The notes beneath the pieces are model-generated. The model saw nothing but the letters and a program-made list of their open reading frames with translations. It had not been told where the DNA came from and searched no databases. Positions 1 to 12,652 of a stretch of DNA of 64,000 nucleotides are shown here, piece after piece (position 1 is the first letter of the stretch; the number at the start of each line of letters is the position of its first letter). The position numbers and the translations under genes are program-made. Location of the stretch: NCBI GenBank assembly GCA_963675185.2, contig CAXXOH010000003.1, positions 74,517 through 138,516 of the forward strand, written 5' to 3'. Source of the stretch: an uncultured Ilyobacter sp. (GTDB lineage: Bacteria > Fusobacteriota > Fusobacteriia > Fusobacteriales > Fusobacteriaceae).

Positions 1-1010
1 ATTATGGCAGGTATATTCGCATAGGTTTCCACATTGTTTACATTTGTCGGTTTTTCCCAGTAGCCTGCTTCTGCTGGGAAAGGAGGTTTTAGGGTAGGTT
101 CTCCCCTCTTCCCTTCCATCGAGTGAATAAGCGCCGTCTCCTCTCCGCACACAAAAGCTCCTGCACCGTATTTAAGCCTTATCTTAAAATTGAACCCTGT
201 CCCGAATATGTTTTCACCCAAAAGTCCGTACTCTTTTGCCTGAGCTATTGCTTTTTCCAATCTTTCTATAGCTAGTGGATATTCCGCCCTTATATATATG
301 ATCCCCTCATCGGAACCGATGGCATATCCGCAGATAGCCATTGCTTCAAGTACAGAATGTGGGTCCCCCTCAAGTACCGACCTGTCCATGAAAGCCCCAG
401 GATCTCCTTCGTCTGCGTTACACACTACATATTTTTTATCCGAATCATAGTTATACGCAAATTTCCATTTCATACCTGTAGAGAATCCTCCGCCTCCTCT
501 ACCTCTAAGGCCGGAATCCGTCACTTCTTTTATGACATCCTCTCTGCTCATTCCTGTCAACACTTTATGAAGTGCATAGTAAGCATCATGTGATATGGCA
601 TCATTTATATTTTCAGGGTCTATAAAACCACAATTCCTAAGGACTATCTTCTCCAGTTTATCACTGACAAACACATCAGTTTTATGGGTTTTCTTATATT
701 TTATATCTTTTAATATTTTTTCAGCTTTTTTCAGATCCACTTCGCCGTATATTTCACCTTTTCCACCCGGAAGTCTAACTTCTATGGTTGGTTCAGAGTG
801 GCAGAGGCCCATACAGCCTGTGGATACCAGCTCTATGTCATCCTTGCCTTCCCTGTCTAGCTCTTCTTTAAAAAAATCATATACACTGTCCGCTCCAGCT
901 GTTATTCCACAAGTGGACATGGAAACTTTTATAAGGGTTTTTCTCTCCCCCTCTGCCGATATTTTTTCTTTTATAGCATTCAAATCATTTATAGTATTTA
1001 CCACCTTCAT
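1..1010 (-). CDS. NuoF/HydB-like NADH-binding flavoprotein subunit (5' part; 3' end runs off the window)
   Basis: Absent from ORF track because it is open at the window edge. Manual translation from ATG (rc of 1008-1010; GTG at 1004 is an alternative start) gives MKVVNTINDL...GLRGRGGGGFSTGMKW...CNADEGDPGAFMDR...GAGAFVCGEETAL, the NuoF-type FMN/NADH motifs. Lies immediately downstream of the NuoE-like gene. Confidence 0.9.
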   Translation of the reverse strand, partial: MKVVNTINDLNAIKEKISAEGERKTLIKVSMSTCGITAGADSVYDFFKEELDREGKDDIELVSTGCMGLCHSEPTIEVRLPGGKGEIYGEVDLKKAEKILKDIKYKKTHKTDVFVSDKLEKIVLRNCGFIDPENINDAISHDAYYALHKVLTGMSREDVIKEVTDSGLRGRGGGGFSTGMKWKFAYNYDSDKKYVVCNADEGDPGAFMDRSVLEGDPHSVLEAMAICGYAIGSDEGIIYIRAEYPLAIERLEKAIAQAKEYGLLGENIFGTGFNFKIRLKYGAGAFVCGEETALIHSMEGKRGEPTLKPPFPAEAGYWEKPTNVNNVETYANIPAI

Positions 1011-1018
1011 CCCCCCAA

Positions 1019-1651
1019 TTATTGATATTCTTTTAAAATATTTTTTACCTCATCTGGCTCTACTCTTCCATACACCTTTTTGCCGATGGTGACCACAGGA
1101 GCCATGCCGCACGCTCCTACACATCTCAATACATCAAGGGAAAACTTACCATCACCTGTTGTTTCTCCTACTCTTATACCCAACTCTCTCTTGAATTCTG
1201 TGAGTATGGTCTCTGCGCCGTTTACATAACATGCAGTCCCCATACATACAGAAATAGGATGTTCTCCTTTTGGGGTGGTGGTGAAAAACGAGTAGAATGT
1301 TATAACTCCATAAATTTCCGAAAGTGGTATATTCATTTTTTCTTCAACGAAACTCTGCACTTCCACCGGCAGATAACCGAAAATATCCTGAGCCTTGTGA
1401 AGCACTGTTATAAGTTCGCCTTTTTGGGTTTCAAGCGAATTTATAAAATCTTCTAATTCCTGAAAACATTTTTCTTTAGTTCTATTTGTGCACTCCAAAT
1501 CCATCCCTCCCATTTTTGGTATTTCATTATCAATATTACTTGAACAAATCTTAAAAATCAATTTTTTAACCTTATTTAGGTCAAAAAATATACTTTCCTG
1601 CTTTTGTACAAATTCAAGTTTTAGCCAACATATTAAGTTTTGAATATTCAT
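1019..1651 (-). CDS. NuoE/HydC-like thioredoxin-fold [2Fe-2S] subunit
   Basis: ORF track. ELITVLHKAQDIFGYLP...CMGTACYVNG...LRCVGACGMAPV (4-Cys NuoE signature). No RBS at 1651, so the true start may be an internal Met (1513 or 1504). Confidence 0.85.
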   Translation of the reverse strand: MNIQNLICWLKLEFVQKQESIFFDLNKVKKLIFKICSSNIDNEIPKMGGMDLECTNRTKEKCFQELEDFINSLETQKGELITVLHKAQDIFGYLPVEVQSFVEEKMNIPLSEIYGVITFYSFFTTTPKGEHPISVCMGTACYVNGAETILTEFKRELGIRVGETTGDGKFSLDVLRCVGACGMAPVVTIGKKVYGRVEPDEVKNILKEYQ

Positions 1652-1743
1652 CTAGGCTTATAATCTATATTTTTTTTTACAATATTCCCATAAAACCAAC
1701 TCAAATATAATATTTTTTTTATAATTGATTTGTTGTGCCTACA

Positions 1744-1780
1744 AAATAAAAAACCTCCTTTGAAAAACTCAAAGGAGGTT
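1744..1780 (-). terminator. intrinsic terminator after the ABC importer operon
   Basis: 12-bp stem AACCTCCTTTGA/TCAAAGGAGGTT (1752-1763/1769-1780) followed on the minus strand by a T-run (plus-strand A-run 1744-1753). Confidence 0.8.
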
Positions 1781-1806
1781 TTATTAATCCAATATTAAAT
1801 TATATT

Positions 1807-2598
1807 TTAACTAAAAAGTTCTGTGTCTTTAAATTCCAGGTTGTCTTTTTGCGAGAATATTTTGAGCAGTTTTTCCACACTTAAATCCTGCTTTTCATTT
1901 CCGCTGACATCAAGTATTATCTGCCCTTTATGGAACATGATAAGTCTGTCTCCATATTTTATGGCATCACTTAAGTTATGGGTGATCATAAGGGTGGTTA
2001 CCTCATTTTTCCTTACTATTTCATCTGTTTTTCCCATTATCATCTTAGAAGTTTTCGGATCAAGGGCAGCAGTGTGTTCATCTAAAAGCAGCAGATCAGG
2101 TTTTTTCAAAGTTGCCATGATTAATGAGAGCGCCTGCCTCTGCCCACCTGAAAGCAGCCCCACAGGTGTGTAAAGTTGATTTTCCAAGTTTAGATTAAGA
2201 CCTTTTAAAAGTTCTTTATATTTAGATTCCGACTTTTTATTTAAGCCAAACCCTAAACCAAATTTTTTCCCCTTATTCTCAGCCATAGAAAGGTTTTCCA
2301 TTATTGTCATAGATGGAGCTGTCCCCAAAGTTGGGTTCTGAAACACTTTTGATATATAGGTGCTTCTTTTAAATTTAGGTAGATTTTTAAGGGATTTCCC
2401 TTCTAAAACTACATCTCCACTATCAAGTTCTGCAGTCCCAGAAATAAGATTTAAAAATGTAGATTTTCCAGCACCGTTACTACCAATTATACTTATAAAT
2501 TCTCCTTTTTCTATGTAAAAACTAAACTCGTCAAAAACTACTTTTTCTTGAGGAGTCCCAGCGTTAAATTTTTTGCTTATTTTATCTATTTTAAGCAT
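1807..2598 (-). CDS. ABC transporter ATP-binding protein
   Basis: Walker A GSNGAGKST, signature LSGGQRQ, Walker B LLLLDEHTAALD. Confidence 0.9.
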   Translation of the reverse strand: MLKIDKISKKFNAGTPQEKVVFDEFSFYIEKGEFISIIGSNGAGKSTFLNLISGTAELDSGDVVLEGKSLKNLPKFKRSTYISKVFQNPTLGTAPSMTIMENLSMAENKGKKFGLGFGLNKKSESKYKELLKGLNLNLENQLYTPVGLLSGGQRQALSLIMATLKKPDLLLLDEHTAALDPKTSKMIMGKTDEIVRKNEVTTLMITHNLSDAIKYGDRLIMFHKGQIILDVSGNEKQDLSVEKLLKIFSQKDNLEFKDTELFS

Positions 2599-3499
2599 TC
2601 AACTCCCCTTCCTTTCCAGCTTCTGCAAGCTTTTGATCCTTACGATGTTTTCTTGCAAGTACGCTAGGTATGAAATCAATTTTTCCATGCTTCAAGGCAA
2701 GTATCAATATTACTATAAGTGACGTTATCAGCTTAAGGTCACTTGCAGCAAGCCCCATCCTTAGGGTAAAAGCCGTGACAAGCTTATAGATCAAGCTCCC
2801 TACTATCACGATAGTCGTCATGGCAAACTTCGTCCTTTTAAGAAGGCTTTCCCCGACAATTATGGAAGCGAGTCCGGTTACGATTATACCTGTACCCATT
2901 CCCACATCTGCAAACCCCTGATATTGAGCCAGTATACCTCCTGAAAAAGCCACTAAAGAATTTGAAATAGCTAGTCCTAATATTTTTAAGGTTTTTTCAT
3001 TCACACCCAAAAAACTTACCAGAGTCTCATTGTCCCCAAGTGCTCTCAAGACAAATCCAAACTTAGTTTTCAAAAGGAAATCCAAAGTGAATTTTGCCAA
3101 AGCAAGAAGTATAAGAATTATATATATCGCTTTGCCAGTTCCGCCATTAAAAAGATGCTCTATGTTGAAAAGGTGTATGTTTGACTTTCCCATCACCCTG
3201 AGGTTAACTGAATAAAGCGCCGTCATGGTAAGTATACCTGCCAAAAGGTTACTTATATTGAATCTTGTGTGGATAAATCCAGTAAAAGCTCCGGCCAAAG
3301 CCCCGCCAATTAGTGCAAAACCAAGACTGACAAAAGGCGAATGCCCTGCAACCAAAGATGCTCCGACTATACTTGCCCCCAAAGGAAAGGTACCGTCTAC
3401 CGAAAGATCCGGAAAGTCAAGTATCTTATATGATATGTAAACCCCGAGACTCATTATTGCAAATATAAGTCCCTGCTCTAAACTACCCAATAAAAACAA
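2591..3499 (-). CDS. ABC transporter permease
   Basis: Polytopic hydrophobic protein; overlaps the ATPase gene by 8 nt and abuts the binding-protein gene. Confidence 0.85.
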   Translation of the reverse strand: MFLLGSLEQGLIFAIMSLGVYISYKILDFPDLSVDGTFPLGASIVGASLVAGHSPFVSLGFALIGGALAGAFTGFIHTRFNISNLLAGILTMTALYSVNLRVMGKSNIHLFNIEHLFNGGTGKAIYIILILLALAKFTLDFLLKTKFGFVLRALGDNETLVSFLGVNEKTLKILGLAISNSLVAFSGGILAQYQGFADVGMGTGIIVTGLASIIVGESLLKRTKFAMTTIVIVGSLIYKLVTAFTLRMGLAASDLKLITSLIVILILALKHGKIDFIPSVLARKHRKDQKLAEAGKEGELNA

Positions 3500-3500
3500 C

Positions 3501-4484
3501 TTAATTACCCCCTATCAAAATTACGTCCTCTCTCTTCAAAGATTCCGGAATGTCTATTCCTAATTTCTCAGCTGTATCAAGGTTTATTACAAGCTGAGTA
3601 TTTTCCAAAGTATGAACTCCTAATTCAGATATTTCTTTTCCTCTTAGTAGTTCTAACGCCATCTCTCCAGTTTGTCTCCCTAGTTTGTAGTAGTCTATAC
3701 CCTCTGTTGCAAGAGCTCCAGATTCTACATGAGCTTTTTCCGATCCTATCACAGGAACTTTCTTTTCCATGGATTTGGATATGATTAGAGGCATACTAGA
3801 TACTACCAAATTGTCCGTAGGTGTGTACAGTACATCTACTTTATCAAGCAGAGAATCTAAGGCGCTTGCCATCTCATTTATATTTGTTATCCCTACCTTT
3901 TCCAACTGGATTCCCTTTTCCTTGCACAGTTTTTCCCAATGAACAACCTGGATTTCTGAATTTTGTTCGCTGGTATTGTAGATTACCCCTACTCTTTTAA
4001 CCGCCGGCAAGAGAGTCTTCATAAGCTCCATCTGCTTGTCCATAGGGCTGGCGTCACTCGTCCCTGCAACGTTGGTTCCTGTATTTTCATACCCCTCGAC
4101 AAGACCTGCTGCTTTAGGGTCAGTAACAGCTGTTATAAGTATAGGAATCTCTTTAGTTGTGTTGTAAGCCGCTTGTGCCGTTGGAGTAGCTATTGCCAGA
4201 ATCAAATCCTTCTTATCTTCTACAAACGATTTCGCAATATTTTGGGCTATACTCATATCACCCTGTGCACTTTGAGTTTCTATATTCAACCTTTCTTTAA
4301 ATTCCGATTCATTCAGCACATCCTCGAATCCGTTTCTGGCTGCATCAAGAGCCGGATGTTCTATTATCTGGCTAATCCCAATTTTTATCGCCTTTTCTTT
4401 TTCGGATTCTTTTTTCCCACATCCTGCAAATAATAAAAGTGTTAAGAGTGCTGTGATCATAAATTTCAAATTTTTCGCTACCAT
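3501..4484 (-). CDS. ABC transporter substrate-binding lipoprotein
   Basis: Lipoprotein signal MITALLTLLLFAGC. Periplasmic-binding-protein-like sequence, first gene of a 3-gene importer operon; RBS AGGAGG upstream. Confidence 0.85.
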   Translation of the reverse strand: MVAKNLKFMITALLTLLLFAGCGKKESEKEKAIKIGISQIIEHPALDAARNGFEDVLNESEFKERLNIETQSAQGDMSIAQNIAKSFVEDKKDLILAIATPTAQAAYNTTKEIPILITAVTDPKAAGLVEGYENTGTNVAGTSDASPMDKQMELMKTLLPAVKRVGVIYNTSEQNSEIQVVHWEKLCKEKGIQLEKVGITNINEMASALDSLLDKVDVLYTPTDNLVVSSMPLIISKSMEKKVPVIGSEKAHVESGALATEGIDYYKLGRQTGEMALELLRGKEISELGVHTLENTQLVINLDTAEKLGIDIPESLKREDVILIGGN

Positions 4485-4738
4485 ACTACCTATCTTCCTC
4501 CTTTTTTTTGTTTAAAAAAATCTCCGCAAAAACGGAGATAGATAAATTAAACACCCCTGTATTAAAATTAGGTTAAAATCAAAAAATACAGACGGACTGT
4601 TTTTAGATTTATCTTTGTCTACCGCAACTATCCGCCAAAACAACTACTTTTGCTGCAAATAGCAAGATTGTGTGCACTACAGCTACTACTTTAATATTAA
4701 AATAATGATATCAATTTTTAATTTTTTTGTCAAGAATT
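4485..4738 (-). promoter_or_regulatory. leader of the ABC importer: promoter, UAG-triplet clusters, attenuator
   Basis: Minus strand: TTGACA (4733-4728), 17 nt, TATCAT (4710-4705). UAG triplets at 4688-4686, 4685-4683, 4679-4677 (cluster I) and 4646-4644, 4630-4628, 4621-4619 (cluster II). Then hairpin + U-run at 4539-4513 just before the RBS. Confidence 0.6.
4513..4539 (-). terminator. intrinsic terminator/attenuator inside the importer leader
   Basis: ATCTCCG-loop-CGGAGAT (4539-4520 on the minus strand) followed by UUUUUUU. Located between the promoter and the start codon at 4484. Confidence 0.75.
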
Positions 4739-5176
4739 TTAAGACTCCTCGCCTTCCAATATAGGTATAGACCTGTGGGATAGAGCTATGACTACCTCAT
4801 TTAAATGGAGTAAGCCTATGTTGAAAAATACGGCCACACTTATATGCTCCCCTTTCCTTGATATGCCTATCTTCCCGCCGATGCTTAAGCCGTTTGCTTT
4901 ATTTTGAAGCTGTTCGAGAGCCTCCCTTACAGCCCCTGCAACAGCTCCATCATGCACATGGCAGTCCAATATTAACCCCTTTCTCTTGGACGCCACCAGG
5001 GTATTCTCGATTATCTTAGGTACTATCCCAGGGAACTGCCCCCCTATATCCACTGCCGTGGACTTGAAACCTAGCTTCTTGTAGCTGTCGATTAGTCCCA
5101 TTTCCTCCTTTCTGTCTGATAGAGCCAGTTTTGCCGCTATTTTCGAGACTTCATTGCTCTCTTTCACCATTTCCAA
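4739..5176 (-). CDS. HutP-family protein (putative RNA-binding antiterminator)
   Basis: 145 aa. C-terminal ...SVAVFFNIGLLHLNEVVIALSHRSI resembles the B. subtilis HutP end ...SLYGTIGAPIKGLEHETFGVGINHI. The central CHVHDGAVAGAVREAL resembles SHALYHATMEAL. Size and position (before a terminator-containing leader) match hutP. Confidence 0.5.
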   Translation of the reverse strand: MEMVKESNEVSKIAAKLALSDRKEEMGLIDSYKKLGFKSTAVDIGGQFPGIVPKIIENTLVASKRKGLILDCHVHDGAVAGAVREALEQLQNKANGLSIGGKIGISRKGEHISVAVFFNIGLLHLNEVVIALSHRSIPILEGEES

Positions 5177-5213
5177 AATACCCCCTCAACTTTCTATAGA
5201 AATTCTATAATCT

Positions 5214-5618
5214 TCAAAAAAACAGTTCCATTATAACGTAAGATTTACCGCCTTTTTCAAAACACTTATCTGTTTTGTATAGCCCAAACTTTTTGTAAAA
5301 TTCAACTTTAGAACTTCTAGCATTGCACCATATCCTTTTCACACCAAGCGCTTTCATCTCATCTAACGCTGCTTTTAGAAGGCTTGTCCCATACCCTTTG
5401 CCCTGCTCAGATTTCTTGGTGGCAAACTTTCTAAACTGCGCAGATTCCCCTTCAACGAAAAGTGATATTACCGAAACCATGCTGTCTCCTACAAACAGTC
5501 CAAAATGCATCCCCTTATTATCATCCTCTAACTTTACATACTCAATATCCCTATCAGGCCACATCACCTCATGCCTCAAATCCCACGTCTGTTCGACACA
5601 GACCCTCTTTATCTCCAT
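5214..5618 (-). CDS. GNAT family N-acetyltransferase
   Basis: 134 aa; acetyl-CoA motif QGKGYGTSLLKAAL. Confidence 0.8.
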   Translation of the reverse strand: MEIKRVCVEQTWDLRHEVMWPDRDIEYVKLEDDNKGMHFGLFVGDSMVSVISLFVEGESAQFRKFATKKSEQGKGYGTSLLKAALDEMKALGVKRIWCNARSSKVEFYKKFGLYKTDKCFEKGGKSYVIMELFF

Positions 5619-5679
5619 TCACAAAACTCCTTTCAAAACAATTCCTCAATCTAAAAAGAAGCAGGATGACCCGCTTCTT

Positions 5680-5883
5680 TTAAAAAATTTCTTCTTCCAC
5701 AGGAAATACACTTGCAATGCACCAGTTACCAGCTGTGCCTTGCCATACTATCTCGAATATCTTATAGGCATCCCTATCTTCCATGTCGCTGTAGAAACTT
5801 TTCGCCTCTTCTAGGGAGTCAAAAACCTCCACGGTATACTTCCCCCTGTGATCACTTATGCAATACTCCACTTTTGTTTCCAA
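5680..5883 (-). CDS. hypothetical small protein
   Basis: 67-aa ORF with protein-like composition; no recognisable motif. Confidence 0.4.
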   Translation of the reverse strand: METKVEYCISDHRGKYTVEVFDSLEEAKSFYSDMEDRDAYKIFEIVWQGTAGNWCIASVFPVEEEIF

Positions 5884-5920
5884 TAAAAAACACCGCCCTG
5901 TATAAAATATTATTATAAAA

Positions 5921-6298
5921 CTACCATGTGCCTAAAAAAGCAAAAAGTGCTATCAATGTGAAATACATCCAGTCACTCATAAAAACTAAGGCCCTCTTTA
6001 TATCGGAAGTAAAGGCCAACTGGAGCTCCCAAACTGAAAACATCAGGTAGTTTAATGATATAAACTTAATCAATATTATCCCATCTTTAAAACCACCAAA
6101 TCCGAACATCAGCAAAAACAAAGTCGAAAATATCAAAAATATCATGTTGTATGAAAAAAAACTCTGTATATTCTTTTTTATTACTTCTTCTAAACTCGGG
6201 TCTCCCAACACCTTTAAAACATTTTTTCTGTCCTGGGTGATGAACTTCAATGTGGTTACAAGAGCAATAATACCTGAAATAAGTGCAAAAATATTCAT
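5921..6298 (-). CDS. hypothetical membrane protein
   Basis: About 4 hydrophobic helices. Start moved to the Met at 6298, which is preceded by AAGGAGG (the ORF track extends to 6346). Confidence 0.55.
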   Translation of the reverse strand: MNIFALISGIIALVTTLKFITQDRKNVLKVLGDPSLEEVIKKNIQSFFSYNMIFLIFSTLFLLMFGFGGFKDGIILIKFISLNYLMFSVWELQLAFTSDIKRALVFMSDWMYFTLIALFAFLGTW

Positions 6299-6628
6299 CT
6301 GTCTCCTCCTTGAATGATTTTCCCTGCAGTAAAAAACGCTCACCAAAATTACTTTACAGAAAATCTATACATTTTGTCAAGTCTTGTGAAAATATTTTAA
6401 GCGGCTTCAACCTTTAAATGACTTAAATTTTTATTTTGTCCGTACTACTCTTCTTCAGTAAGAGCATAAATATTCCTCCAATATTTCACGCTGTTTTTCC
6501 TCAAATATCCAGCTCCACTTTTATTGTGTCGGCTAAGCATCTTCCAGATTTAGCTGCTGCACAAAAATTTGAAAAAATTCCTATTCATCTGATATAATAG
6601 GTTAAAATCTATTTTTGAAAGGTGAATC

Positions 6629-6832
6629 ATGGAAAAATATCTCATAACAACGGAAGAAAAAAAAGAATTTTTGGAAAGACTCCCGGTTCTGGCGTGCGTC
6701 AACTCCATAGGGATAGATTATGATGACGGAGAATACTTTTCCGTAAAATGTAAACTGCTAACTGGTTCATGTACCTATGCAAGGTATGTAGATAAAGCAT
6801 TTGAAGACTGTATGGTAAAAAAGAGAAAGTAG
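6629..6832 (+). CDS. hypothetical small protein
   Basis: 67-aa ORF, RBS AAAGGTGA upstream; a terminator hairpin overlaps the stop. Confidence 0.45.
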   Translation: MEKYLITTEEKKEFLERLPVLACVNSIGIDYDDGEYFSVKCKLLTGSCTYARYVDKAFEDCMVKKRK

Positions 6833-6870
6833 AGCGGGTTTCCTCGTTTACTTTCTCTTTTTATTTTTTA
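6822..6870 (+). terminator. intrinsic terminator
   Basis: AGAGAAAGTA (6822-6831) / TACTTTCTCT (6849-6858) followed by TTTTTATTTTTT. Confidence 0.7.
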
Positions 6871-6967
6871 TCTCTATACTTGCTAAAATTTAATATAAGC
6901 AACGTTGCTATTTAAAATTTTCGATTAATTAACTCAAGTTGCTACTCAATTAAATAAGCAATTAATT

Positions 6968-7250
6968 ACTGAATTTATCTACAAAATCTTTTTTGGCCAC
7001 AGAGTTCCACAGAGCTGGCAAACATGAGCCGCACAGAGAAAACATATTAAAAATAATTTTTTTCACTAATCTTCACGGATCACACGAATTAATTGAAACT
7101 CTTATAAAATACTTTATTTCTGCATATTTATAAATTTTCTTACTCTGCGAAACTCTCTTTATTTTTTCGTGCAGCTCTGTGTCCAAAATATAATTTTATT
7201 TTTTATTCGTGTCCATTCGTGTGATTAGCGACCAAATAAAAATATTCAGT
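6968..7250 (+). repeat. structured intergenic repeat, copy 1 (full length)
   Basis: Modules: CCACAGAG..CACAGAG..CACAGAGAAAAC; TCACTAATCTTCACGGATCACACGAAT; variable centre; CTCTGCGAAAC..CAGCTCTGTGTCCAAAATA; ATTCGTGTCCATTCGTGTGATTAGCGAC. Outer ACTGAAT / ATTCAGT ends. Homologous to 9346-9600, 26268-26501, 39813-40010. Confidence 0.85.
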
Positions 7251-7310
7251 GATATATAAACACTAAGATGGTAGATAGCAAAGTTTCACAGCTCGTAGTT
7301 TATATCTGTA

Positions 7311-7682
7311 TCAGTTCTTCTCCTGTATAAACTCAATTACTACACCATCCGGGTCTTCTACGAACAAGAGCTTTGTCCCATTGTGAGTCTCAAAAGGCCC
7401 ATTTTTTATAGGCACCTTGTTTGCCTTGAGAAGCCCGACTACCTCCTCCATATCTTCTACGAATACCCCCATTGCAACGTTAGATGTACCGCTCCCCCTC
7501 TCACCGTGAGCACCGTCGTCCACCAGTTCCACAGTGATTTCTCCTTCATTTTTCATGAAAACCAAGTGTAGATTTTCATTCGGCCTGAGCTCCCTTACTA
7601 CCTCCATGCCAAAAACCTTTTTATAAAACCCTATGGATTTCAACATATCTGAAACGTGTATTGTAAAAAGGTTTATCCTCAT
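7311..7682 (-). CDS. VOC/glyoxalase-family protein
   Basis: 123 aa; the HVSDMLKSIGFYKKVFGM start and ...VEDPDGVVIEF end are typical of the glyoxalase/bleomycin-resistance fold. Confidence 0.75.
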   Translation of the reverse strand: MRINLFTIHVSDMLKSIGFYKKVFGMEVVRELRPNENLHLVFMKNEGEITVELVDDGAHGERGSGTSNVAMGVFVEDMEEVVGLLKANKVPIKNGPFETHNGTKLLFVEDPDGVVIEFIQEKN

Positions 7683-7711
7683 AAGACACCCCCATTAAAA
7701 CTTTTCTAATT

Positions 7712-8215
7712 TCACTTCAACTCTGATACGAATTTCTCTATTTTCGCTATAGCATCCTCCCTGTTTTTAAGAGGAGCCTTAAAATCAGCTTCTGCCAAAA
7801 ATTTATTCCGCTTCATGGCCATTTCCATCTCTTTTAACGTATTTCCCATTCCACCTTCGTGGCAGCAAAACACCACAACGTTTTTACCCTCAATGTCGTT
7901 TTCGTTGAGAAACGTCCTTAGCGGTGGGGAATATGTCCACGCCCATACCGGGCTGCCTATTATAAACGTATCATAGGCATCTATATCCAAATCATACTCT
8001 TTAAGAGCCGGAGTCTTCTTCATAAAAGCCTGTCTGCCACCCCAAACATACTTCATGAAACCGTGACTCCTTATCTCCTGTGCCGGCTCTATCCTTAACA
8101 TGTCGCAGCCCAACCTAGCAGCAATTTCGGTAGCCACAAAATGGGTATTCCCTTCAAAAGAATAGTATATTAAAATAGTTTTCCCAAGTTCCACTACTTC
8201 ATCCCTCCTTTTCAT
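7712..8215 (-). CDS. flavodoxin-family protein
   Basis: ILIYYSFEGNT N-terminal FMN-loop-like motif; ~165 aa. Confidence 0.7.
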   Translation of the reverse strand: MKRRDEVVELGKTILIYYSFEGNTHFVATEIAARLGCDMLRIEPAQEIRSHGFMKYVWGGRQAFMKKTPALKEYDLDIDAYDTFIIGSPVWAWTYSPPLRTFLNENDIEGKNVVVFCCHEGGMGNTLKEMEMAMKRNKFLAEADFKAPLKNREDAIAKIEKFVSELK

Positions 8216-8435
8216 ATCCTTCTAACATAATAAATTACTCCTTTGAAATGAAAATCCTACATTTTAAAAATTTTATTTTATTTTTCCATGAAATTAGACT
8301 TTTTTTTCATAATCCAAGTCAAATACTTGGAATTGATAAAATACTGATATTTTTTTGCTCAAAATTTTGGAAAATATAGACAAAAATGCTAAAATTAATA
8401 TGAGGAAAATAAAAAACTTGAAGCGAGGTCATACT

Positions 8436-9290
8436 ATGAAGAACATTAAAAAGATTATTATATTTTCTTTTATTGCTTTAGCTACAAGCGTATCTGCAAG
8501 CAATTTTAACACTGTAAAAGTAAACGCAGACGTCCTAAACGTTAGGGCTTCTGACAATATTGATTCTAAAATAATCGGAAAATCCATAAAAGACTCCGTG
8601 CTTTATACTGTAGGCGAGAGCGACAATTGGTTCAAAATTGATTTTGGAAAAAATACCGGCTGGGTAAGCAAAGATTACTTAGATATCTTAAGCGAATCCG
8701 TTCCGGTAAATGTAAACGCATCTGTACTAAATATGAGGGAGAGCCCGGATAAAGACGGGAATCTGCTCATGAAGCTTACCGAAGGGACGGACCTTGAAAT
8801 ACTCGACAAATCCGGAGACTGGTATGAGGTGGAACATAACGGTGTCACAGGATATGTTTTTGAAAAATATGTAAGCATAAGTGACGAAGGTGTAATTCCA
8901 TCAAAATTACCGAGAGAGGATATAGCTGCGGTTATAGAGTTTGCCAAGGAAAAACTTGGATCGGAATACGTGTGGGGGGCAAACGGCCCAACCCAGTTTG
9001 ACTGCTCAGGGTATGTAAAATACGTATTTGAAAACACTATAGGGGTAGAGCTTCCGAGGACCTCATATCTGCAAAGTAGATTGGACAACAAACTGGATTT
9101 CTCAGAATTAGAGACTGGGGACCTTGTGTTTTTTGATACCTCAAAGCAGGGAAGGGTAAACCATGTTGGGATCTATTTAGGAGACGGCAAGTTCATACAC
9201 GCTTCTTCGGCTAGGAGTAAGAAAAGGGTTACTATATCGGACCTTTCAAAATTTTATAAAAACGCCTTTAAATGGGGTGTCAGAATATAA
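8436..9290 (+). CDS. SH3b-domain NlpC/P60 peptidoglycan hydrolase
   Basis: Start moved to MKNIKK (RBS GAGGT). Signal peptide, two SH3b-like repeats (DNWFKIDFGKNTGWVSKDYL; GDWYEVEHNGVTGYVFEKYV), and the NlpC/P60 catalytic FDCSGYV...HVGIYLGDGKFIHA. Confidence 0.85.
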   Translation: MKNIKKIIIFSFIALATSVSASNFNTVKVNADVLNVRASDNIDSKIIGKSIKDSVLYTVGESDNWFKIDFGKNTGWVSKDYLDILSESVPVNVNASVLNMRESPDKDGNLLMKLTEGTDLEILDKSGDWYEVEHNGVTGYVFEKYVSISDEGVIPSKLPREDIAAVIEFAKEKLGSEYVWGANGPTQFDCSGYVKYVFENTIGVELPRTSYLQSRLDNKLDFSELETGDLVFFDTSKQGRVNHVGIYLGDGKFIHASSARSKKRVTISDLSKFYKNAFKWGVRI

Positions 9291-9291
9291 G

Positions 9292-9320
9292 AGGATCGGT
9301 TTAGCCGGTCCTTTTTTATT
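9292..9320 (+). terminator. intrinsic terminator
   Basis: AGGATCGG/CCGGTCCT hairpin followed by TTTTTTATTTT. Confidence 0.65.
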
Positions 9321-9345
9321 TTACTTAAGATTTTACTAATAAAAT

Positions 9346-9600
9346 ACTGAATTTATTTGAAAACCTTCTTTAGACACAGAGTTTCAAAGAGATTTAAAAC
9401 ATGAGGCGCACAGAGAAAACCTTTTAAAAATAATTTTTTGTCACGAATTTTCACGGATCACACGAATCGATTAAAATCTCTAGGCTATGCTTTACTTACA
9501 TATCTTTGTTTATTTTTTCTCTGCGAAACTCTTTATTCTCCTCCGTGTCACTCTGTGTCCAAAATATTTTTTATTAGTGTCCATTCGTGCGATTAGTGAC
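9346..9600 (+). repeat. structured intergenic repeat, copy 2
   Basis: Same module order as copy 1, starts with ACTGAATTTAT. GTCACGAATTTTCACGGATCACACGAATCG ... TTAGTGTCCATTCGTGCGATTAGTGAC. Confidence 0.85.
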
Positions 9601-9781
9601 TAAAACAGATATTTTTCATTTCTATGACTTTAAATCAACTCAATACTCTACATTAAGTTTCCTGCAACACCATAACGAAACCAATTAAAATTTTCTAGTA
9701 AACAAATTTTTATAAAGGATTTAGGGGCATAATTTTAATATCTTATAATATAGAGAAATTTGGAAATCGAGGGTGGATAAC

Positions 9782-10765
9782 ATGCGAAATTTTTTTCTTC
9801 TAATATTTATCTTGATCACGGCTACAAATATTTTTTCAGCGGAGTTCTGGGGTGAAGTGAAATCAGAATACCGTATTGAAAACTTAGAGGAAAGCAGGTT
9901 CCCTCTAGAGGCGAAACTTGGGACAGAGTTTTCGGAGGATGATTTCTATTCGCAGTTCGCCATAATAGGGGAGAGCACCGAATCGGAGGAGGGCGTGGAC
10001 GTCTATAGGGCTCACGTAGAGCTCTACAAAGACAACCTAACGCTTTCCATTGGTAGGCAAAAGCTGGTGTGGGGATCGGCTTTTATATTTAACTTGACAG
10101 ACGTTTTCAACCCTGTAGACATAGAAGACCCCAGGTCCGAAAAGGTAGGCACTGATTCCATCAGGCTAAAATACAATACCACAGCAATGTCCCGTCTCGA
10201 AGCTGTGGCTTTTAAAAATGACTTATCAAATAACAATTTCGGTTCGAGGTACACGTTTTTGTCTGGGGATTTCGAGTTCATGTTAAACTATCTGAACTAT
10301 AAGCAGTCGGTTTTCGACAGTGAAGAAACCCGTAGAAACGACCTTATATTCGAGTTCAAGGGCGATGTCGAAGTAGGATTGTGGGCCCAGTTGGAGCAGT
10401 ACTGGGAGGATTCGGACAGCGGCACTACCGCTGTAATTGGAACCGACTATACCTTCGATGTCATGCAAAAGACACTCTATACCCTGGCAGAAGGGGTGTA
10501 TGATTTCGGTGAAAAGGCGGCGGCAGTATACCTTATGTACAAATATGATTTCAGCGACTTGGCTTCATTCAATCAGAGTGCACTGATAAATCCAAAGGGT
10601 GGATCATTTTTTATAAGCAGCTATATCAGCTACATATTCAACGACTATGTCACCACAAAGACCGGTGTTAATTTTTATAACGATATGGAGCAGTTTGGGT
10701 TTGAGACGAGCGAGGGAAAACAGCTAGACAACGAGCTGTTCTTGGAAATGAAGTTATTCTTTTGA
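9782..10765 (+). CDS. predicted beta-barrel outer-membrane protein
   Basis: Start moved to ATG 9782 (GAGGG 8 nt upstream). Signal peptide ...ATNIFSAE, an IGRQKLVWGSAF motif, alternating beta-strand-like pattern, C-terminal ...EMKLFF (terminal Phe typical of OMPs). Confidence 0.6.
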   Translation: MRNFFLLIFILITATNIFSAEFWGEVKSEYRIENLEESRFPLEAKLGTEFSEDDFYSQFAIIGESTESEEGVDVYRAHVELYKDNLTLSIGRQKLVWGSAFIFNLTDVFNPVDIEDPRSEKVGTDSIRLKYNTTAMSRLEAVAFKNDLSNNNFGSRYTFLSGDFEFMLNYLNYKQSVFDSEETRRNDLIFEFKGDVEVGLWAQLEQYWEDSDSGTTAVIGTDYTFDVMQKTLYTLAEGVYDFGEKAAAVYLMYKYDFSDLASFNQSALINPKGGSFFISSYISYIFNDYVTTKTGVNFYNDMEQFGFETSEGKQLDNELFLEMKLFF

Positions 10766-10780
10766 TCGGAGGGGGATCAC

Positions 10781-11455
10781 ATGGCAATCGTGGAGTTGAA
10801 TGATTTAAAAAAAGATTATATAAATGGAAAGGTAACGGTAAAAGCATTAAAGGGCATAACTCTTTCTATAGAAAAGGGGGAGTTTACAGTTTTTGCAGGT
10901 CCTTCAGGTTCCGGTAAGACAACCCTTCTAAACATAATAGGCGCCATGGATACTGCAAGCAGCGGGAGAGTGGTCGTTGCAGGCCATGATATATCCCAAC
11001 TCAGCAGAAAAGAAGCCTCTAATTTCAGGAAAGAAAAAATCGGTTTTATCTTTCAAAACTACAACCTGATACCAGTTTTGACGGTCTATGAAAACATAAT
11101 TTTTTCACTGGATTTGATGAAAAGACATGATAAATCTCATAAAAAGAAGCTTGTAGAAGAAATAATGGCAGACCTTGGGATTTCCGAGCTGAGAAATAGG
11201 AAGCCATCAGAGATATCCGGCGGACAGCAGCAGAGGGTGGCCATAGCCAGGGCCCTTGTGAAAAGACCGGACATAATATTGGCGGACGAACCAACTGCAA
11301 ATCTCGACACCCAGACCGGAGAAAGTATAATAGATCTGATGAAAAAGCTGAACCAGGAAAAAAATATCACCTTTATTTTTTCCTCCCACGACCACATGAT
11401 AATAGAGAGGGCTAACAGGGTGATTGACTTAAGAGACGGCAAATTAGAAAGGTAG
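10781..11455 (+). CDS. MacB/LolD-type ABC transporter ATP-binding protein
   Basis: GPSGSGKTT, ISGGQQQRVAIARAL, ILADEPTANLD. Confidence 0.9.
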   Translation: MAIVELNDLKKDYINGKVTVKALKGITLSIEKGEFTVFAGPSGSGKTTLLNIIGAMDTASSGRVVVAGHDISQLSRKEASNFRKEKIGFIFQNYNLIPVLTVYENIIFSLDLMKRHDKSHKKKLVEEIMADLGISELRNRKPSEISGGQQQRVAIARALVKRPDIILADEPTANLDTQTGESIIDLMKKLNQEKNITFIFSSHDHMIIERANRVIDLRDGKLER

Positions 11456-11461
11456 ATTACT

Positions 11462-12652
11462 ATGATACTTAAAATGGCATTCAGAAACATTTTTCGTCAC
11501 AGAATAAGAACAGCCCTTACCATGGTGACTATGATCGTAGGGATATTCTTGGCCTTATTAGGGGAGGGTATAAACAGCGGGTTAGAAGTGCAGGTAAAGG
11601 ACATCTATATAAATACAGAGACGGCAAACTACAAACTGTATGCAAACGGATTTTACGACGATAAGGAAGATAACGATCAACTTGAATTCCCGATAAAGAA
11701 ATCGGACTCCATTGCGGGATTGTTAAAGGAGAATAAATTTTCCCCGAGAATAAGCTTTAAGGGAAGCATTACAAACGGTTTAGAAGAACTGTCGGTTGAC
11801 ATACTCGGTGTAGATAAAGATATGGAAAATTCAGTATTCAATCGTAACGGGTATATGGATTCCGGTACCTTTCTGAACAAGCCGGAAGGGGTAGTGATAG
11901 GCAGTGACCTATTCCAGCTTCTTAACCTAAAACTGGGCGATGGGGTAACTCTTATAGCCAGAACCTCTAAAAACAGTATAAATGCATATGATCTGTCGGT
12001 GGAGGGGGTCATTAAGACCGGCAACCCACTTTTGGACAGTAGGCTTGTATTTATCAACATGGACTTGGCTGAAAAATTTGCAGACACAGAGTCAATAAAC
12101 GATATCGCCATAAAAGGAGAGCTGAGTCCTTTACAGATAAGCGAGCTGAAAAAACTTGGTGTAGATGTGTTAAGCTGGCACGATGAGGTAAAAGGAATTT
12201 TGGAGATAGCTCGAATCAGGAGAAAGGCTTTTGCTATAATAAGTTTTACTATACTTCTTATGGCAGGAGTTGGGATAGCCAATACAATGATAATGGCCAT
12301 GCTGGAAAGGCAAAAAGAGATAGGGATAATGATGGCAAACGGTATGTCTAGAAAGGATATACTGCTTCTTTTTTTAGGTGAAGGCACAATAGTTGGAACT
12401 ATCGGCAGTTTTCTAGGGTTTGTCCTCGGTACAATTTTTGTTCTATACTATCAGAAAAACGGTATAGCTGTAGATCTGGACACCGCTGATCTGGGTATGA
12501 GCATTCCTATTTCTGAAAAATTGTACACATATTTTGATTTAAGCAAGTCTATAGTCTTCATGCTTATCGGAATCTTGATATCCATTCTGGCTATATTATA
12601 TCCCTCGATAAAATCAACAAGGTTAAATCCTATCGAAGTCATAAGGGACTAG
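11462..12652 (+). CDS. FtsX/MacB-type ABC permease
   Basis: N-terminal TM (MAFRNIFRHRIRT...), large extracytoplasmic domain, three C-terminal TMs. Confidence 0.85.
   Translation: MILKMAFRNIFRHRIRTALTMVTMIVGIFLALLGEGINSGLEVQVKDIYINTETANYKLYANGFYDDKEDNDQLEFPIKKSDSIAGLLKENKFSPRISFKGSITNGLEELSVDILGVDKDMENSVFNRNGYMDSGTFLNKPEGVVIGSDLFQLLNLKLGDGVTLIARTSKNSINAYDLSVEGVIKTGNPLLDSRLVFINMDLAEKFADTESINDIAIKGELSPLQISELKKLGVDVLSWHDEVKGILEIARIRRKAFAIISFTILLMAGVGIANTMIMAMLERQKEIGIMMANGMSRKDILLLFLGEGTIVGTIGSFLGFVLGTIFVLYYQKNGIAVDLDTADLGMSIPISEKLYTYFDLSKSIVFMLIGILISILAILYPSIKSTRLNPIEVIRD

Follow-up and report, generated by a model that had tools for sequence, protein, structure and literature searches.

What does a protein of the HutP family regulate when its gene stands in front of an ATP-binding cassette (ABC) importer operon and not in a hut operon? 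The question is raised by a hutP-like gene in a 64,000-nucleotide (nt) stretch of DNA from an uncultured Ilyobacter sp. (assembly GCA_963675185.2, contig CAXXOH010000003.1, positions 74,517 to 138,516; called the window below), where a leader with clusters of UAG triplets and an intrinsic terminator lie between this gene and an operon for a substrate-binding protein (SBP), a permease and an ATPase (Table 1). All coordinates are those of the window, and the locus is transcribed from its minus strand. HutP is the textbook example of a regulator dedicated to one operon. An earlier note on this DNA had read the locus as hut-style antitermination applied to a transporter. Our work establishes the family and fold of the protein, the sequence features of the locus, its synteny, its RNA motifs and their co-occurrence with the hutP-like gene, and it leads us to favour a switch of the opposite sign. 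Judging from sequence comparisons, we put a probability of about 55% on the HutP-like protein being a TRAP-like RNA-binding repressor of the adjacent, probably tyrosine, importer.

A distant branch of the HutP family

The open reading frame that the earlier note had called HutP-like matched the Pfam family HutP (PF09021) at 134.9 bits (cut-off 25), over profile positions 1 to 128 of 128. Translation is likelier to start at the ATG at 5170 than at the TTG, which gives a protein of 143 aa, because homologues start with MVKESNEV. The AlphaFold2 model of the protein has a pLDDT of 91.3, and in a Foldseek comparison with the PDB its 11 best matches were all HutP chains (TM 0.65 to 0.77, E down to 1e-7, 17 to 19% identity), after which the matches fell to a TM below 0.5. 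A phmmer search against PDB sequences gave no match, and hence the protein is tied to HutP only by profile and fold comparison; a profile built from 21 HutP-like sequences reached Geobacillus HutP (4OK9) only at an E-value of 0.0025 and over half its length. Together, these data support the assignment of the protein to the HutP family and, with a TM of 0.75, to the HutP fold, as a member of a distant branch.

The branch is large. Its profile matched 298 clusters at 50% identity in a collection of 1.8 billion proteins, and the databases label its members, by transfer, 'HutP family protein' or 'Hut operon positive regulatory protein'. The nearest public hutP-like loci are in Ilyobacter metagenome-assembled genomes (MAGs), with 94% and 83% protein identity. 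The genome to which the window belongs (2.7 Mb, 97% complete) encodes a single HutP homologue and gave no match to hutH (PF00221); as the gene is followed by an ABC importer operon, the protein is not a hut regulator.

Does the protein share the oligomeric state and the ligand of HutP? HutP is a hexamer made of three dimers. A homodimer model of the HutP-like protein reached an ipSAE of 0.56, compared with 0.23 for the best of three controls, with at least 96% of the contacts agreeing between runs and a partner pLDDT of at least 86. Of 30 proteins solved as same-chain pairs, 20 reached the ipSAE mark that it passed, as did 1 of 23 proteins with single-chain structures; because HutP oligomers have already been solved, the pass may reflect likeness to them and is not proof. 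The ligand site looks different. The histidines of the HALYH motif of HutP (4OK9), which we take to be the Mg2+/His ligands His73 and His77 of an L-histidine/Mg2+ pocket presumably made of His73, His77 and His138, align with Gly75 and Gly79, both invariant in this branch, and HutP Glu81 aligns with the invariant Glu83. The profile alignment behind these correspondences is weak (E=0.0025) and makes them provisional; as far as it goes, the ligand site has evidently been rebuilt relative to HutP, and the ligand chemistry would differ. We infer from the sequence that the protein binds RNA.

UAG triplets in the leader and at the start codon

If the HutP-like protein controls the importer, the two should stay together in other genomes. 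A scan with the HutP-like profile, in which each species was represented by one genome, returned 245 loci, and we analyzed the best 80 of these. At 61 of the 80 loci, in two phyla, an SBP gene of family PF04392 lies 3' of the hutP-like gene, on the same strand and within 1.6 kb, with a UAG-rich leader between them. These loci are mostly from Clostridium and also from Hathewaya, Romboutsia, Terrisporobacter, Fonticella, Ilyobacter and Epulopiscium-like MAGs; their intergenic leaders are 190 to 970 nt long and contain 6 to 41 UAG triplets. A terminator-like hairpin followed by a U tract is present in 52 of 55 related leaders, and the Clostridium loci have TTGACA-type promoters at the position equivalent to that of the importer promoter in the window. 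In three Ilyobacter species this promoter is identical base for base, and so are the motifs AGUAG, UGUAG, GGUAGA and GGUAGnAUGGUAGCGAAAA, between which the sequence drifts.

The leader also follows the presence of the regulator. In Fusobacteriaceae in which the hutP-like gene is located elsewhere (L115, L116 and L118), the SBP orthologue is still preceded by a promoter, a UAG cluster and a terminator and has UAG in its start region, and in four genomes from two genera that have no hutP-like gene, no UAG leader precedes the SBP gene. UAG leaders were seen solely in genomes possessing a hutP-like gene. The comparisons support a conserved link between the hutP-like gene, the UAG leader, the terminator and the importer in Ilyobacter, other Fusobacteriaceae, Clostridium, Peptostreptococcaceae and others. 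A comparison of leaders had been named in the earlier note as a check on its proposal, and it came out in favour of conservation, with UAG motifs invariant in the three Ilyobacter leaders and UAG-rich leaders behind hutP-like genes in dozens of genera. The sequence features on which that proposal was built were found as described there: the promoter directly after the reading frame, all six triplets of the two UAG clusters, the terminator and the three-gene operon. The promoter begins 5 nt past the hutP-like gene's stop codon and is the best promoter-like site within positions 1500 to 6500.

How much can be read from the number of UAG triplets? The leader and start region of the window (223 nt) contain 9, and the density of the genome predicts about 3.5 (Poisson P of about 0.01). 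Related leaders are denser in UAG as well (0.041 per nt in 56 leaders, versus 0.016 in the Ilyobacter genome itself). The same genome has 296 places with at least six UAG per 75 nt, and UAG-dense windows were abandoned as too unspecific for finding a genome-wide regulon. The UAG count alone is thus weak, and we take its significance to come from conservation in other genomes. The triplets also differ in geometry from those of hut, as the earlier note had pointed out: the window has two sets of three UAG with gaps of 0 and 3 nt in cluster 1 and of 13 and 6 nt in cluster 2, and the spacers of hut are about 4 nt. From centre to centre, triplets in the related leaders are most often 8 (n=139), 3 (n=122) or 5 nt (n=73) apart; the hut spacing of 7 nt is rare (n=28).

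A third cluster of UAG triplets, which had been missed before, lies between the Shine-Dalgarno sequence (SD) and codon 3 of the SBP gene, with triplets at 4492-4490, 4488-4486 and 4480-4478. In 54 of the 80 loci the start of the SBP gene sits inside the near-invariant element GGAGGAUGGUAGUAUGGUAG, in which AUG is the start codon (window copy, 4501-4478). The SBPs at these loci are only about 50% identical, and GGAGGAUGGUAGUAUGGUAG is conserved at the nucleotide level; an SD, spacer and first codons conserved in this way mark an RNA site that acts in cis. The 13-mer GGTAGTATGGTAG at the SBP start codon is unique in the 2.7-Mb genome. Five complete genomes of Clostridia contain it one or two times each, with 6 of the 7 matches at hutP-like loci, and it is present in 73 of 151 Clostridiaceae genomes, where a reversed-pattern control gave fewer matches (a comparison of motif counts only). 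The unit GUAGUAUGGUAG recurs within many leaders. A UAG site at the SD can even occur without the rest: three Sebaldella-type loci (L015, L099 and L104) have no terminator and a short 5' untranslated region, with only UAGUAGGAUAGUAGGAGG running into the SD.

Does the protein have other targets? A search of the Ilyobacter genome with the 13-mer (up to 2 mismatches) and with GUAG-repeat patterns found only this locus convincing. In a Leptotrichiaceae genome, five UAG triplets (UAGGAAAUAGAAUAGGAAAUAG and one more) lie within about 35 nt of each other 3' of the hutP-like gene (L016:1920-1976), directly before a gene whose product has an N terminus like that of HAD-family hydrolases, and the HutP-like branch may have targets besides the importer, as in this case. 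A second match to the start-region motif came from Clostridium carboxidivorans (L147:1490-1545), where the tandem CATGGTAG CATGGTAG CATGG, preceded by the inverse CTACCAT, lies upstream of a gene for a GntR-type-like regulator; we considered CTACCAT..ATGGTAG as a second RNA site and rejected it, reading the inverted repeat as a DNA operator. A leader peptide as an explanation for GGAGAUAU..AUG in the Clostridium leaders was rejected as well, as the short frame was not conserved (judged by eye). An Rfam scan of window positions 1 to 12000 matched no family at E≤1, and on this ground the leader contains no known riboswitch or T-box.

How could triplets in the leader act on a terminator further downstream? 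The terminator of the window consists of a hairpin of 8 bp (4539-4520) and, after it, a U6 tract (7 T including one in the stem), with a free energy of -11.0 kcal/mol. When the leader is folded so that it ends before the 3' arm of the terminator, GCGG-U-AGA (4625-4618) pairs with UCU-CCGU (4538-4532) of the 5' arm. The 3' part of cluster 2 is therefore a predicted 5' strand of an antiterminator, an alternative structure that the earlier note had suggested looking for. The best duplex of GGCGGA..GGUAGA with UCUAUCUCCGUU has -10.6 kcal/mol. A central hairpin, predicted in the minimum free energy (MFE) folds of both the full and the shortened leader, would stack with the GCGG-U-AGA pairing and put cluster 2 beside the 5' arm of the terminator. 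An equivalent antiterminator pairing is predicted in a second Ilyobacter species. Among 53 related leaders, the best upstream partner of the terminator 5' arm holds a UAG in 50, versus 32 expected, although this is structure prediction with little covariation. The usual partner is the conserved GUAGGAGAU, which is complementary to the UCUCCUA of the equally conserved terminator AACUCUCCUAUnGGAGAGUUUUUU, and the partner changes with the class of terminator (UAGGGA with UCCCUA, and GUAGC with GCUAU). In the window, the two upstream look-alikes of the terminator 3' arm, GCGGAUAG and GCGGUAGA, each carry a UAG, and the true 3' arm, GCGGAGAU, has none. Nor does the window terminator as a whole contain a UAG, and all six leader triplets lie 80 to 150 nt upstream of its hairpin.

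Ligand and direction of the proposed switch

What does the importer take up? The closest solved chain to its SBP is CD0873 of Clostridioides difficile (6HNI), with an E-value of 1e-88. CD0873 binds tyrosine; its Glu263 bonds with the hydroxyl group of tyrosine, and its Tyr279 excludes tryptophan (PMC6816091). The SBP of the window has Glu and Tyr at the aligned positions (GSEKA...GIDY), which in the phenylalanine-binding protein 3LKV are Ala and Tyr and in the tryptophan-binding protein 3LFT are Ala and Gln, in agreement with the same study (PMC6816091). Because the SBP keeps both specificity residues of CD0873, the operon is predicted to encode a tyrosine importer. An amino-acid-like ligand, which the earlier note had thought probable, is plausible with such an SBP. 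Two further PF04392 SBP paralogues of the same genome (C3:156831-157745, 58% identity; C3:714150-715079, 52% identity) have no UAG leaders. The first of these, like the SBP genes of relatives with and without a hutP-like gene (L119, L120 and L123-L130), is preceded by the motif (C)GAACAA ... TTGTTATCTAC, which looks like the operator of a DNA-binding regulator.

Why would the cell import tyrosine? Chorismate synthase and prephenate dehydrogenase (TyrA) were not found in the genome of this Ilyobacter, and both were found in 14 of 14 control genomes. The best match to a beta-eliminating lyase is a frame of 361 aa, which is too short for a tyrosine phenol-lyase. With no chorismate synthase, TyrA or lyase of the size of tyrosine phenol-lyase, tyrosine must be imported for protein synthesis, a situation that fits feedback repression. 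A different neighbourhood was observed in Leptotrichiaceae (L011-L013 and L015-L029), in which an aroK-like gene (shikimate kinase) and an aroQ-like gene (type II 3-dehydroquinase), named by eye from the N termini of their products, are followed by the hutP-like gene. On sequence evidence, this gene order links the regulator to aromatic amino acid metabolism, though the Ilyobacter studied here has no chorismate synthase or TyrA. No UAG leader was seen 5' of aroK-aroQ-hutP in the Leptotrichiaceae, where the region looks coding.

We propose the following mechanism. The operator would be a set of UAG triplets in single-stranded RNA, frequently as part of GUAG or GGUAG and with 8 nt as the commonest distance, and would be present in two places, the 5' leader upstream of the terminator and the translation-initiation region (4492-4478). 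When the ligand, likeliest tyrosine or another aromatic amino acid, is plentiful, an oligomer of the HutP-like protein would bind the leader repeats and mask the antiterminator strand, so that the terminator (4539-4520) forms and transcription stops. On transcripts that escape termination, the protein would cover the SD-AUG region and block the ribosome. When the amino acid becomes scarce, the protein would leave the RNA and the importer would be made. Both the sign of regulation and the ligand are what we infer from sequence. Repression is favoured by the sites on the SD and AUG, the Sebaldella-type loci with a site at the SD only, the UAG in the antiterminator strand and the anabolic need for tyrosine; a protein bound at the SD and AUG can hardly do otherwise than block initiation.

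Not everything points in this direction, and a number of observations weigh against a HutP-like repressor. In the window the terminator state is the more stable one by 10.4 kcal/mol (median for 53 leaders, 4.2 kcal/mol), and a leader that terminates by default would suit an activating (antiterminating) protein better. About 20 of the 53 terminators carry a UAG in the loop or the 3' arm, as in hut site II, and more than 90% invariance in the antiterminator strand GUAGGAGAU leaves little true covariation. In another genus of Fusobacteriaceae (L014, L019 and L022), the leaders lack a clear antiterminator, and their start regions are free of UAG. Dinucleotide-preserving shuffles of the window sequence give 6.6 UAG (P=0.14), by which the count in this single leader is not significant. 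The protein shares just 17 to 19% identity with HutP, its ligand, plausibly an amino acid, is suggested only by the context, and clostridia often ferment aromatic amino acids, so that substrate induction would also be sensible there.

Could the switch then work as in hut? The earlier note's mechanism, in which a HutP-like hexamer, activated by its ligand, would attach to both UAG clusters, keep the terminator (4539-4520) from forming and turn the importer on in the presence of its substrate, seems rather unlikely to us. The protein is a HutP homologue, and antitermination is the only known activity of HutP (PMC2425495, PMC12591593); the two clusters of three UAG recall hut sites I and II, yet they do not flank a terminator stem as those do and instead lie far upstream of a terminator that is itself free of UAG. 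Read-through may need help in leaders in which the terminator state is so favoured, and the full-length MFE fold offers a possible anti-antiterminator that the protein could open, namely the pairing of cluster 2 with the region just after cluster 1. However, the strand that bears the UAG is the complement of the terminator 5' arm, and the conserved SD/AUG cluster and the SD-only loci imply repression, so that an antiterminating regulator would have to act in opposite ways at its two sites. The UAG found in the related terminators and the suitability of substrate induction for amino-acid-fermenting clostridia are on the side of antitermination; in this Ilyobacter, which lacks the shikimate pathway, TyrA and a lyase of the size of tyrosine phenol-lyase, import would be anabolic. 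What stands of the earlier proposal is a HutP-family protein with a conserved link to an importer outside hut, and what we no longer favour, given the upstream position of the sites and the cluster at the SD, is the direction.

Another reading keeps repression and reverses the effect of the ligand, such that the ligand-free protein represses and the amino acid releases it, or has a ligand that is not an aromatic amino acid. We regard it as improbable. The direction of the ligand effect is not fixed by the sequence, and the alignment of HutP His73 and His77 with Gly75 and Gly79 suggests a different ligand chemistry; yet in both HutP and TRAP it is the amino acid that activates RNA binding (PMC12591593; PMC2425495), and the tyrosine-type SBP and the aroK-aroQ neighbours point to aromatic amino acids. 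It is very improbable that there is no dedicated switch at all, that the UAG triplets are due to chance or composition, the hairpin is leaky or otherwise controlled (by a riboswitch, CsrA or TRAP) and the hutP-like gene is a mere neighbour. Such a reading would account for the UAG count, which the shuffles match, and for the 296 UAG-dense places in the genome. It does not sit well with the synteny and UAG-rich leaders at 61 of the 80 loci in two phyla, with a 20-mer in the start region that is kept at 54 of the 80 loci and unique within genomes, or with the restriction of UAG leaders to genomes with a hutP-like gene; the leader matched no Rfam family (E≤1), and the genome has no TRAP gene.

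The locus among known systems

Compared with HutP of Bacillus subtilis and Geobacillus (PDB accession numbers 1WPV, 1WMQ, 3BOY and 4OK9), the protein described here belongs to the same Pfam family, has the same fold and is of similar size (143 to 148 aa). As in hut, the gene is located directly 5' of a leader with a terminator, the leader has clusters of UAG (NAG) triplets, an amino acid ligand is expected and a homo-oligomer interface is predicted. The NAG sites of hut lie beside the terminator stem and reach into it, and the stem melts when HutP binds (PMC2425495). Unlike in hut, the target is an ABC importer with a promoter to itself, located after the regulator gene and before the leader. 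The UAG triplets are most often spaced by 8 nt (3 and 5 nt are also common) and not by 7 nt, the sites in the window lie upstream of the terminator, an extra site covers the SD and AUG, and repression is the result that we predict. In a 2025 review of RNA-binding antiterminators, HutP appears only in connection with the hut operons of Bacillus (PMC12591593).

The logic that we propose is that of TRAP of B. subtilis (trpEDCFBA, trpG, trpP and ycbK), an amino-acid-activated oligomer that binds (G/U)AG repeats in single-stranded RNA and masks an antiterminator, whereupon a terminator forms. On transporter genes TRAP binds over the SD and the start codon and so prevents their translation; triplets over the SD and start are present in the window, and aromatic amino acid transporters are a shared class of target. 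The two proteins have unrelated folds, and the repeats here are fewer (6+3) and less regularly spaced than those of TRAP, with tyrosine and not tryptophan as the probable ligand. TRAP itself (MtrB, PF02081) had no match in the genome. The importer resembles that of CD0873 in C. difficile, with a PF04392 SBP and the same type of three-gene operon. The paper on CD0873 mentions no HutP-type control (PMC6816091), and the streptococcal homologue TrpX is described as T-box controlled (PMC9382623).

TABLE 1 Features of the hutP-like gene and importer locus, in order of transcription
Feature	Position	Strand	Description
hutP-like gene	5176..4739	-	145 aa from TTG at 5176; distant HutP-family branch, presumed RNA-binding regulator
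Sigma-70-type promoter of leader and importer operon	4733..4705	-	TTGACA, 17 nt, TG-n-TATCAT; 11/12 matches, TG extension
UAG cluster 1, UAGUAGCUGUAG	4688..4677	-	Triplets 4688-4686, 4685-4683 and 4679-4677; about 10 nt from predicted transcription start
UAG cluster 2, GUAGUUGUUUUGGCGGAUAGUUGCGGUAGA	4647..4618	-	Triplets 4646-4644, 4630-4628 and 4621-4619
Predicted central hairpin	4614..4540	-	Base AGAUAAAU (4614-4607) pairs with AUUUAUCU (4547-4540)
Intrinsic terminator	4539..4513	-	AUCUCCGU-UUUU-GCGGAGAU, then U tract
Translation-initiation region with third UAG cluster	4501..4478	-	GGAGGAAGA-UAG-G-UAG-U-AUG-G-UAG; SD 4501-4497, start codon 4484-4482
Lipoprotein SBP gene (PF04392)	4484..3501	-	284 bits; lipobox LFAGC; predicted tyrosine-specific
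ABC permease gene (BPD_transp_2)	3499..2591	-	Pfam match
ABC ATPase gene	2598..1807	-	Pfam match
Operon-end terminator	1782..1750	-	Strong; 15-bp stem and U tract

Some other features of the locus are recorded here as observations in their own right. A perfect 7-bp inverted repeat, TATAGAA-T-TTCTATA (5212-5191, minus strand), is located just 5' of the ribosome-binding site of the hutP-like gene, between it and a GNAT gene (5618-5214), and could be an operator or a small hairpin for the expression of the hutP-like gene; there is no terminator between these two genes. Within the leader (4600-4577, minus strand), a weak 4-bp hairpin, ACAG-UCCGU-CUGU, is followed by AUUUUUU, and a second Ilyobacter species (L033) has a hairpin and a U run at the equivalent position. 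This hairpin may serve as a site of pausing or as a weak first terminator. Further downstream, after the importer operon (3-1651, minus strand), are genes for a thioredoxin-like [2Fe-2S] ferredoxin and a NuoF-like protein (Complex1_51K), which look like subunits of a hydrogenase or NADH dehydrogenase module and are unconnected with the HutP-like protein.

What does this locus tell us about the HutP family? A search of the full-text literature found no paper that describes this system or in which a HutP homologue is connected with a transporter or with tyrosine. New here would be a regulator that has the HutP fold and acts on a new target, with a ligand site that has been rebuilt, repeats of a different geometry, an additional operator for translation and, probably, the opposite sign. 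In a large HutP branch, most members adjoin a tyrosine-type ABC importer, with a sharply conserved RNA signature. The chances seem to us evenly balanced that they form a second widespread class of HutP-fold, amino-acid-sensing (probably tyrosine-sensing) RNA-binding repressors in Clostridia and Fusobacteria, which would recognize UAG triplets about 8 nt apart and act on an antiterminator and on the SD-AUG region. The proteins of this branch, which the databases label as positive regulators, probably repress, and if this is true, a widespread annotation would be corrected.

In summary, a switch as proposed would bring to the known riboregulators a new one that senses an amino acid and whose RNA operator is defined, with a 20-nt start-region element and a 220-nt leader. 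It would account for the control of tyrosine uptake in many anaerobes, including the Clostridium botulinum/sporogenes group; in pathogens related to these anaerobes, the homologous importer (CD0873, a colonization factor of C. difficile) affects colonization of the gut. It would also illustrate the convergence of two unrelated folds, those of TRAP and HutP, on the logic of attenuation by triplet repeats.

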